From Octopus vulgaris (taxonomy: Eukaryota): 64,000 bases of DNA. Shown here piece after piece: positions 11,101-60,689 of this stretch. A program made the position numbers and the translations under genes. Under the pieces are notes generated by a model that worked only from the letters and a program-made list of their open reading frames with translations, was not told the origin of the DNA and ran no database searches. Positions within the stretch are counted from its first letter, which is position 1. Every line of letters starts with the position of its first letter. The stretch is from positions 98,580,001 to 98,644,000 of the forward strand of contig OX597823.1 in the NCBI GenBank assembly GCA_951406725.2, read 5' to 3'.

Positions 11101-11445
11101 ATGTGATGATATCTTGGAGCAGAGTATTGTTTTAAAAGAAATACTTTAAGGCGAACAATTACCATGATACTTTCCTCTATATATTGATGGTTAAGGTAAC
11201 GCTTTTTCTGTATAATGGAAAATAATATAGATCAGTCCAAATCTACATGAACATGCTCATATTTTAAATGAAATTTAATAATCATTAAAATTTTTTTAAA
11301 TCAATGCATCTGAGACTTTATAAGGTTATACCTATCATGACAGTGTCTCAAATTATAGAAATAGGTCTACCTTAGCAACTACTTTTAAAACATAACAATT
11401 TCAAGTTCTGAACCATCGTTAGTTTTAACTTTTTACTCCTTGCAG

Positions 11446-40324
<28,879 letters not shown>

Positions 40325-57589: not shown

Positions 57590-58968
57590 ACTGACAAGGA
57601 ATAGCATCTCCACCACAAAACGAAGAGCAGTTGCAACAGCTCAGAGAAGCAACTTCTATGAAGCAGCTTTCAATTATGATCATTATGCAGATCATTATAC
57701 CGATAATACTAGAGTTTCCATTGGTGCAGTGATAATTGAGTGCATACATTGTAAAGCAAAGAAGTAGTCTGGAGAGACACCTGGACTGTGCTGCAGTGGT
57801 GGAAAGTTTATCCTCCAACCTCCAGAGCCATTGAAGAAACTGTTGCCATCAACTGACCAAGACTCCAAGCACTTCCAAAACAAAATTAGACAATACAATG
57901 CTGCACTACAGATGACATCATTTGGAGACATAAGAAATATAACTGAGCCAGGATTCATACAAACTTTCAAGGTCCAAGGTCAAATTTATCATCGGATTGG
58001 CTTTCTACTACCTCTGTCAAATGAATCACCAAAATCCCTTCAAATATATTTTATGGATGATTCTCAACAAAAAGGCTAAAAGAGGTGCAAGAACATTTAC
58101 GGCATCAGGATGAACATTGTAGTGTCTCTGCAAAAGATGCTGCATAACAACAACAACCTGATCAGAAGCTTCAAGACTGCACTTGAAACAATTCCACATG
58201 ACTCCATCGATTACAAAATAGTTGTCAGATCAGACAAGAAACCATCTGGTCAGCATGGAGGGAGGTTTAATGTGCCAACAACAAATGAAATGGCTGTGCT
58301 TCGGGTTGGGCAAGAACACAACAAGCGTGACATTGTCATCCATCTCAGAGTCAGCATACTGACAGACACAGTCCAACTACAAATGGAAGTTCCCAAAGAT
58401 ACCACACTTCAGGCGCTGTCAAGATGATGAATTCGCTACAAGACTGCTATACAATGAAGTTCCACAATTCCATACCTGGTACCAAAACTGATGGAAAAGA
58501 TGTGCACTTGGAGTACCCACACATCATCTGGGAATCAAGAAAACAGACACACTTGGCAGAGTCTATGTTGTCCATCCCAACAACTCAGAGTGCTTCCATT
58601 ACACCATGTCAAGAGACCCACATCATTTACAGCATTATGTACGGTTGATAGCACAATATGTCGAACATATCGCTAGGCTTTCCGTCTCAGAGGTCTTCTT
58701 GAAAATGATGCACACTGGGATGTCACTCTGAGAGAGGCACAAATGTGCAAGTCTCCTATGCAGCCGAGAAACCTCTTCTCCATCATGGCAACATGATGTC
58801 TTCATTCCAAGGATGCCTCTCATCTCAAGTGATCTTCCCTTTCAGTTCAAGAGACTGCAGTTTTCTGTCAAACTAAGCTTTACAATGTCTATCAACAAAG
58901 CACAAGGTCAATCACTAAAGGTGGTGGGACTTAACCTCCTTCAACCTTGCTTCTCACATGGTCGGCTG

Positions 58969-58970
<2 letters not shown>
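57590..58970 (+). mobile_element. Helitron Rep/Helicase remnant (fragmented, internally deleted)
   Basis: C..C/ETPGLCC..GK zinc finger, FQNKIRQYNAALQMTSFG, FKVQGQIYHRIG, RFNVPTTNEMA, PTSFTALCTVD, GLLENDAHWD, and PIF1-type QFSVKLSFTMSINKAQGQSL..FSHG.LY. Confidence 0.92.
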
Positions 58971-59645: not shown

Positions 59646-59687
59646 AACAAGTTATATAAGTTTTCAACAGCGATTTAGCACCGACAG

Positions 59688-59874
59688 ACGCCATGATAGA
59701 TCATTAGCTACTACACACATTTTTTTTTCTCTTGTTTTTTTCTGTGTATCTTTCTGTAGAAGAGTGTTGTCTCGAAACGTAAAAGACTTTTTCTATTCCT
59801 GAGTGTTATACTAATACATTTGTTTGTTTGTACACCACCTGCCTTCGTCTTTTGTTTATTTTCGTAAACTTTCC

Positions 59875-59880
<6 letters not shown>
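59688..59880 (+). mobile_element. Fragment of a second hammerhead-bearing repeat family (core mutated CTGTAGA)
   Basis: TCTTT CTGTAGA A GAG tgttgt CTC GAAAC GTA^ AAAGA at 59749-59786, with complementary stem I TCTTT/AAAGA; ends in (TA)n. Confidence 0.6.
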
Positions 59881-59923
<43 letters not shown>

Positions 59924-60085
59924 GGTTTGTTGCCAACTTAATGTGGCAGTCCCAAGAAATGGAAGAATGCTACTGCTATTTAGCCCCAAGAAACACCGTT
60001 TCTACTTGGCTACGTGACACAAATGTGCTGTGACTTTAAGTTTCCAAAGAAGGGAGATAAGCACTTCCACCCAACAAAGCCAGCA

Positions 60086-60125
60086 CCAGAGACTAGTTTC
60101 AGAGAGTTGCCCTTCATCAGTCTGG
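60086..60125 (-). ncRNA. Minimal type I hammerhead ribozyme (intact core)
   Basis: The minus strand reads CCAGA CUGAUGA AGGG caacu CUCU GAAAC UA GUC^ UCUGG. Stem I is CCAGA/UCUGG, the CUGAUGA and GAAA boxes are conserved, stem II is present, palindromic ACUAGU replaces stem III, and the cleavage triplet is GUC. Confidence 0.85.
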
Positions 60126-60419
60126 AGCGCTTGGCTTTGCTAGCTGTCGGTGCTAAATCGCTGTTGAAAACTTATAGCATTTCAAGTGAAATAAATTTAC
60201 TGATCTACAAAATTAGAAATTCTGCATTTCTAAATCTCTCAGAGAGAGTTATGCAGTAGCAGCATGATAAAGTGATGGTTTGTTGCCAACTTAATGTGGC
60301 AGTCCCAGGAAGGGGAAGAATGCTGCTGCTGTTTTGTAGATCAGTGAATTTATTTCATTTGAAATTCTATAAGTTTTCAACAGTGATTTCGCACTGACAG
60401 CTAGCAAAGCCAAGCTACT

Positions 60420-60460
60420 CCAGACTGAGGAAGGGCAACTACTCTGAAACTAGTCTCTGG
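60420..60460 (+). ncRNA. Minimal type I hammerhead ribozyme (second copy, intact core)
   Basis: CCAGA CTGAGGA AGGG caacta CTCT GAAAC TA GTC^ TCTGG; fits CUGANGA...GAAA...NUH. Confidence 0.82.
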
Positions 60461-60658
60461 TGCTGGCTTTGTTGGGTGGAGGTGCTTATCTCCCCTGTTT
60501 GAAAACTTAAGGACACAGAATGCTTGTGTCACGTAGCCAAGTAGAAACGGTGGGGCTAAATAGCAGCAGCATTCTTCCCTTTCCTGGGATTGCCACATTA
60601 AGTAGCTGCTACTGCATAACTCTCTCCAAGAGATTTAGAAATGCAATATTTCAAATTT

Positions 60659-60689
<31 letters not shown>

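Follow-up and report, generated by a model that had tools for sequence, protein, structure and literature searches.

How does a 353-nt repeat carrying a hammerhead ribozyme come to lie twice at one site, in opposite orientations and in what look like two different circular permutations? The question is raised by positions 59,919-60,659 of a 64,000-nt stretch of Octopus vulgaris DNA (contig OX597823.1; hereafter the window), for which an original prediction had proposed a non-autonomous, self-cleaving RNA family copied from a circular or multimeric template. Comparison with the unit confirmed the anatomy then described, in which a unit on the minus strand is accompanied by a short tandem piece and by an arm in inverted orientation. 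The full 353-nt unit, called u1-353, occupies 59919..60271 (-); its 3′ end at 59919 is the tail-less end of the family and lies on a (TA)n tract (59880..59918), the likely target. On the 5′ side of this unit is a 5′-truncated partial tandem piece of 63 nt (u291-353; 60272..60334, -; 92% identity), which overlaps by 3 nt, at the junction of the two arms, with an inverted, 5′-truncated arm composed of u60-336, a 24-nt deletion and u9-60 (60332..60659, +; 89% identity). The deletion spans the unit junction, and the plus arm has another deletion of 7 nt. The ~60-nt tail (u9-60; 60605..60659, +), recognized from the unit comparison and the table of ends, is present only on the plus arm, whose 3′ end is the tail end of the family and abuts the right-hand (TA)n tract (60660..60676); the sequence thus bears out the claim that both outer ends lie on (TA)n. 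The hammerhead region of the window contains no ORF of 150 aa or more. We read the locus as a single old insertion belonging to a dispersed 353-nt repeat that encodes no protein.

Each long arm holds a type I hammerhead, at 60070..60140 (-) and 60405..60477 (+), with both cores as originally read (CUGAUGA and CUGAGGA; stem II AGGG-loop-CUCU; GAAAC-UA-GUC), and the cuts predicted at 60091/60090 (-) and 60455/60456 (+) agree with sequence and fold. Compared with most copies, the minus-strand hammerhead has lost one base in the stem I bulge and one in loop II. Canonical type I hammerheads are defined by an extended helix I with an internal loop, a 4-bp helix II and a palindromic helix III of 1-2 bp (PMC4209133). 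Fold and alignment place here an extended helix I with its internal loop, a 4-bp helix II and a helix III of 1-2 bp with a palindromic loop. The motif is a canonical type I hammerhead, predicted to be self-cleaving, and not the minimal form typical of Penelope-like elements (PLEs) that had been proposed. A check with Rfam models returned no hammerhead family for the window copies, either at E≤1 or at E≤10; these models need not cover the present form.

The ribozyme is conserved beyond the window. The core CUGANGA...GAAA, the NUH cut site and the three helices are found in both window copies, and the core is intact in 52 of the 80 family copies that run through the ribozyme; stem III reads ACUAGUC in 42 of these 52, and the stem II variants AGAG/CUCU and AGGG/CCCU occur in 20 and 6 copies, respectively. 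For 60 of those 80 copies, 92.5% of the cells at paired positions are paired, and pair 10.1-11.1 is A-U in 55/60 instead of the usual G-C. Double-sided changes amount to 17 cells vs 10.2 in shuffles (2/500), mainly at one stem II pair, in a test that is inflated by the relatedness of the sequences. Two cores are predicted to cofold via the ACUAGU palindrome. Note that the axolotl HHR_Amex1, which has a weak palindromic helix III, cleaves 6% as a monomer and well as a dimer (PMC7229834). The fold of the unit (-113.7 kcal/mol; z -5.6; 0/100 shuffles as good) includes the formed hammerhead and leaves it free. In the predicted fold, a read-through RNA of the whole locus is one long hairpin on either strand that buries the hammerhead, and the locus is accordingly predicted to be a dead product, with its ribozymes on opposite strands and hidden in that hairpin.

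The search for further copies of this repeat, hereafter family A, covered the 2.8-Gb genome (227 contigs) and returned 2658 first-look candidates, which are not copy numbers; among the 40 that were scored, the best are 83-90% identical to the window unit. An exact-pattern search of the genome gave at least 5 matches. Assembled contigs from four sequencing runs also match the family, but such contigs are uninformative about expression, strand, ends or circles and carry no weight here in either direction. Four DNA queries and one pattern yielded a pool of 125 loci, reduced to 91 by de-duplication and comprising 130 arms of at least 60 nt; the 91 loci are the best-scoring matches and no random sample. 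Family A copies have a mean identity of 87% to each other, which indicates that the family is old. The unit is short and non-coding, without LTR, ORF, PBS or PPT (the last two judged by eye), and each unit has a single type I hammerhead. The 91 loci and 130 arms bear out that the family is multi-copy and ORF-less and that it conserves a type I hammerhead with a palindromic stem III. No PLE-type RT/GIY-YIG ORF is joined to the unit in any of the 91 loci, including 1.5-kb flanks; the view that the copies are not merely termini of full-length Penelope elements holds for the copies inspected, none of which is flanked by an ORF.

The 3′ ends of the 130 arms lie at u350-8 (54 arms), at u56-69 (45) or elsewhere (31, several of them at the LINE site described below), such that 99/130 arms end at two fixed sites, the unit end or the ~60-nt tail, and the 5′ ends are scattered over the whole unit. 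(TA)n is found at 52 of the 99 canonical 3′ ends vs 5.9% of flank positions. Divergent two-armed insertions make up 38/91 loci and convergent ones 0/91. Where both ends are canonical, one arm is tailed and the other tail-less in 19 of 21 loci (binomial p 1e-4), a rule to which the window locus conforms. From these end counts, the two apparent 'permutations' can be read as the outcome of random truncation at the 5′ side of arms that stop at one or the other fixed 3′ site. The plus arm of the window is indeed exactly one permuted monomer, as had been noted; this looks coincidental, since the arm stops at the fixed tail site of the family and 5′ ends fall unit-wide. Free circular permutation had been expected more generally, with shared fixed ends named in advance as the outcome against it, and the table of ends compiled for the 130 arms gave fixed 3′ ends (99/130).

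Arms longer than one unit number 37/130 (the longest 837 nt), the longest array has 2.4 units, and long tandem arrays are absent from the 91 loci. Only 6/130 arms measure about one unit; three of these have the standard phase, and the LINE site forms the end of two. The ribozyme is traversed by 80/130 arms and two hammerheads are spanned by 5/130, the window locus not being among the latter. Part of the proposal of a circular or multimeric template therefore stands, namely that the template exceeds or runs across one unit (37/130 arms); permutations as evidence for a circle do not, given the 99/130 fixed 3′ ends. Arms of the same locus are 88.5% identical vs 86.3% across loci (higher in 37/49 pairs), a weak same-template signal, and tandem pieces are barely closer to each other than cross-locus comparisons (21/32), which as a same-template test is likewise weak. 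We observed no significant pile-up of family A 5′ ends at the cut site (5/130 within u177-184; p 0.18). Four loci carry ~70% relatives of the unit junction region (L021 568-649, L024 2643-2787, L180 3216-3378 and L300), likely representing, on sequence grounds, more families of the same kind.

A sister family, family B, has a 352-nt unit colinear with that of family A (3499 and 2828 candidates in two genome searches; loci L235 1-1156, L055 2264-2959 and L273-L292). Its hammerhead has the same position and the same core layout, stems I, II and III all differ from those of family A, and the family A hammerhead model detects it at E 2e-5 to 2e-3. A young subfamily (95-98% identity; palindrome ACUCGAGU) has the core CCGAUGA in 23/23 matched cores, where older family B copies have CUGAUGA; because of this replacement, recent spread may not require strong cleavage. 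We analysed the ends of 20 hand-picked young loci (35 arms), four of which were picked for a 5′ start near the cut. The pattern of family A recurs: 31/35 arms end at B351-2 or B45-49, 14/20 loci are two-armed, and one tailed plus one tail-less arm is found in 11/11 loci with two canonical ends, with a tail of 45-49 nt vs ~60 nt in family A. About 4 of 45 truncated B arms start at 177-183, other positions clustering equally, and the junctions near the predicted cut start between 3 nt ahead of it and 1 nt past it. Locus L235 is a young insertion with two full B units, 98.9% identical, and an inverted arm of 1.3 units. At this locus, a truncated copy of the 811-aa PLE follows immediately on the 3′ side of family B, across a short TA tract.

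Two young autonomous families in the genome, with open frames of 717 aa (18947 candidates; 3 copies read, L196-L198) and 811 aa (6178 candidates; 6 copies read, L246-L251), are taken here to be PLEs because of the motifs of an RT and of a C-terminal nuclease that they contain; a Pfam scan of the two proteins gave no match. The 811-aa PLE has inverted 5′ copies and (TA)n ends, with a ~38-nt tail in 3/5 scored copies and without it in 2/5. In the 3 and 6 copies read, neither family has DNA similarity to the unit, the family A hammerhead model matches neither, and a simple pattern scan detected no canonical hammerhead after the ORF of either; an autonomous partner for the unit was thus not found among the two PLE families read.

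We propose, with a probability of about 0.8, that family A is a non-autonomous hammerhead element, an animal non-LTR retrozyme, copied by a PLE reverse transcriptase/endonuclease into TA microsatellites. We hold PLE mobilization itself to be just as probable, because the fixed 3′ ends, the one-tail-per-insertion arms, the (TA)n targets and the partial tandems all match PLE marks, and because the 811-aa PLE of the same genome shows tailed and tail-less (TA)n ends and inverted copies. Tandem master copies would be transcribed, and two hammerheads, pairing via the ACUAGU palindrome, would release unit-length RNA; we lean slightly towards the ligation of this RNA into a circle as the intermediate. 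A PLE protein would bind the structured region around the unit junction and nick both strands of the (TA)n target, reverse transcription would begin on each strand from a different one of two internal sites separated by ~60 nt, and each cDNA would pass the unit boundary, either round the circle, along a multimer or through template jumps. The cDNAs would stop early and their truncated 5′ ends would be joined, giving back-to-back arms.

A PLE could also move the same element without a circle, from an uncut linear multimer or a template-jumped monomer, the hammerhead being weak or serving some other step. Such a route would suit the anole PLE, which in vitro uses unprocessed RNA and inserts ribozyme mutants (PMC11167929), and the failure of 8/9 Xenopus retrozyme dimers to cleave in vitro (bioRxiv 10.64898/2026.07.22.740005); it would also suit the U4C variant in the core of young family B, and PLEs with ORFs of several kb likewise give partial tandems. 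However, the extended stem I, loop II and the palindromic stem III are conserved between families A and B, a family that loses its 5′ parts must rebuild multimers such as the young B dimer of L235, and comparable units of coral, mussel and axolotl yield circles (PMC7229834). We regard this linear route as a serious possibility that falls somewhat short of even odds. That the copies are pLTRs of a full-length autonomous Penelope element missed in the searches is improbable. PLE pLTRs do carry hammerheads, PLE copies are mostly 5′-truncated and vertebrate retrozymes are pLTR homologues (bioRxiv 10.64898/2026.07.22.740005), but copies extending 5′ of a full unit run into a further 3′ end of the unit itself, whose start also makes up the tail; the only foreign sequence shared at 5′ junctions of the 130 arms, among the matches listed, is the LINE insert, and the ribozyme has the canonical form instead of the minimal one of PLEs.

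The first reading of the locus, in which reverse transcriptase starts anywhere on a circular RNA and leaves freely permuted monomers, has become very improbable: the window plus arm does start and end at u60, and 31/130 arms end off the main sites, but the two sites that take 99/130 of the family A 3′ ends and 31/35 of those of young B, together with the scarcity of arms of about one unit (6/130), argue against it. Still less credence goes to mobilization by a LINE (L1/Tx1, RTE or CR1) of a SINE-like element whose inversions arose through twin priming. L1 also shows one-sided truncation with inversion, and an L1/Tx1-type family is associated with the repeat; here, however, each arm has its own 3′ end, the arms overlap and poly(A) is lacking. 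Twin priming on one RNA, as in L1 inversions, would not give one 3′ end per arm plus an overlap. The LINE, moreover, sits inside the unit with a target-site duplication, as a parasite of it.

This LINE-like insert interrupts several family A copies at u127, ~55 nt upstream of the cut. Its target site (u127-137, AGCTAGCAA), occupied by the ORF1-only LINE in other copies, is empty in the window (60135..60146, -). The three full inserts, read end to end (L199 5496-7443; L206 798-2669; L211 5951-7809), measure 1.86-1.95 kb, encode an ORF1 with a CCHC knuckle (zf-CCHC) and are flanked by a duplication of about the target motif; none of the three contains an ORF2, and at one LINE locus a zf-RVT piece lies 1.7 kb from the junction. 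The best homologues of a neighbouring LINE protein are from Octopus sinensis and O. bimaculoides. When loci were searched by the LINE 3′ end, 12/30 run into the unit at or just past the target site (9/27 without the three discovery loci), a share above the >20% of target-flanked copies used as a criterion for such elements (PMC4494074); 5 further loci of the same 30 show the target motif followed by another copy, and a second LINE subfamily among them has no such target. A wider set of 20 ORF1-similar loci comprises one with the unit at the 5′ junction, one with the motif in tandem, one with a related unit and 17 with no sign of either. Since only 1/20 of these loci has the unit at its 5′ junction, targeting appears restricted to one LINE subfamily, a putative L1/Tx1-type subfamily inserting at one retrozyme site. 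Tx1 elements that target other transposons are known, i.e. Tx1L in Tx1D and Tx1-Mar in Mariner-N4_AMi; they resemble the present case in that a LINE subfamily occupies one site of another mobile element with a short duplication (PMC4494074). The putative Tx1-type LINE described here differs in its target, a hammerhead retroelement, and in its ~1.9-kb copies with ORF1 only. Our literature searches turned up no paper on a Tx1 element that has a hammerhead or Penelope repeat as its target.

Other repeats lie next to the locus. At 59685-59878 (+), a 5′-truncated second repeat of 194 nt (5157 candidates; 90-95% identity) stops at a fixed 3′ position on (TA)n and contains a motif that resembles a minimal hammerhead but has a variant core (CUGUAGA-A-GAGC-GUAG-GCUC-GAAAC-GUA). 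In the window copy, stem II of this motif is decayed; on sequence the repeat is probably another Penelope-type terminus. Its assignment to family A was rejected, and it forms a separate family. Fused to it via a CAG overlap are 33 nt identical to u96-128 (59655-59687, +), which end at the site of the LINE subfamily; this piece is unique to the window locus among 40 matches. Further upstream, 58300-58970 (+) is a decayed coding fragment, the last part of which presumably corresponds to the end of a Helitron PIF1-type helicase. Two open frames, both K/S/E-rich and without a Pfam match, are probably giant exons of a host gene: one of 2131 aa at 11412-17807 (+) and one of 1115 aa with a 26-aa tandem repeat at 17654-21001 (+).

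Non-LTR retrozymes are known from coral, mussel and axolotl (Cervera & de la Pena, 2020, PMC7229834; for a review of retrozymes, see PMC7761336), and their connection with PLEs has been drawn from co-occurrence and from homology to pLTRs in 35 species, of which none is given as a mollusc in the parts of the preprint at hand (Li, Clavereau & Pollet, 2026, bioRxiv 10.64898/2026.07.22.740005). Family A shares with the animal elements a non-coding unit of 150-450 nt, a GC content below 45%, one canonical hammerhead, tandems, PLE co-occurrence and, as in HHR_Amex1 of the axolotl, a helix III that is weak and palindromic, and differs in occurring mostly as dispersed insertions of 0.3-2.4 units with inverted arms and without long arrays. 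Its insertions resemble those of EN+ PLEs, for which the marks were described by Craig et al (2021, PMC8557442): partial tandems, an inverted 5′-truncated arm, a tail at one end, two 3′ sites and AT-rich or microsatellite targets (PMC8557442, PMC11167929). Unlike these PLEs, family A lacks an RT/GIY-YIG ORF, its hammerhead is canonical rather than minimal, and its tail is ~60 nt (45-49 in family B) vs 30-40. In work with a purified PLE, both strands of AT-rich DNA were cut and extended, and two internal RNA start sites defined the tail (Frangieh et al, 2024, PMC11167929); in the sections of that paper at hand, the two strands did not differ in vitro and ribozyme cleavage was not required. Non-autonomous PLEs of Chlamys, such as MRC1, also consist of ORF-less units in partial tandems of the pLTR type that a PLE mobilizes in trans, but, as far as described there, they are without a canonical hammerhead and resemble their autonomous partner at the 3′ end (PMC8557442). 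The Octopus vulgaris repeat annotation mentions Penelope and L1-Tx1 and, in the portions of text and supplement available, not ribozymes (PMC13282606), and our search of main texts, repeat databases lying outside it, found no cephalopod family of this type. As judged by such comparisons, family A is likely an addition to the known animal retrozymes, the type of element itself being known.

The link between retrozymes and PLEs has so far come from co-occurrence and pLTR similarity, and here the insertions themselves bear Penelope marks. Together with the near-strict rule of one tail per insertion, seen in two families, these marks provide independent genomic support for the link and constrain how PLEs prime on the two strands, and 'permuted' copies are no longer proof of a circle. 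With a LINE subfamily that hits one site of a ribozyme retroelement, the known targets would gain a further class. These elements might even form a three-tier parasite system, in which circular hammerhead RNAs are copied by a PLE that uses a different one of two start sites for each target strand, and a dedicated ORF1-only LINE, lodged 55 nt upstream of the cut, depends on the retrozyme for its transcription and on the host ribozyme to terminate its RNA. We consider this complete scheme rather unlikely; if it were true, the near-identical dimers of the young sister family and the intact PLE ORFs present in the same genome would make the PLE-retrozyme partnership testable in vitro.
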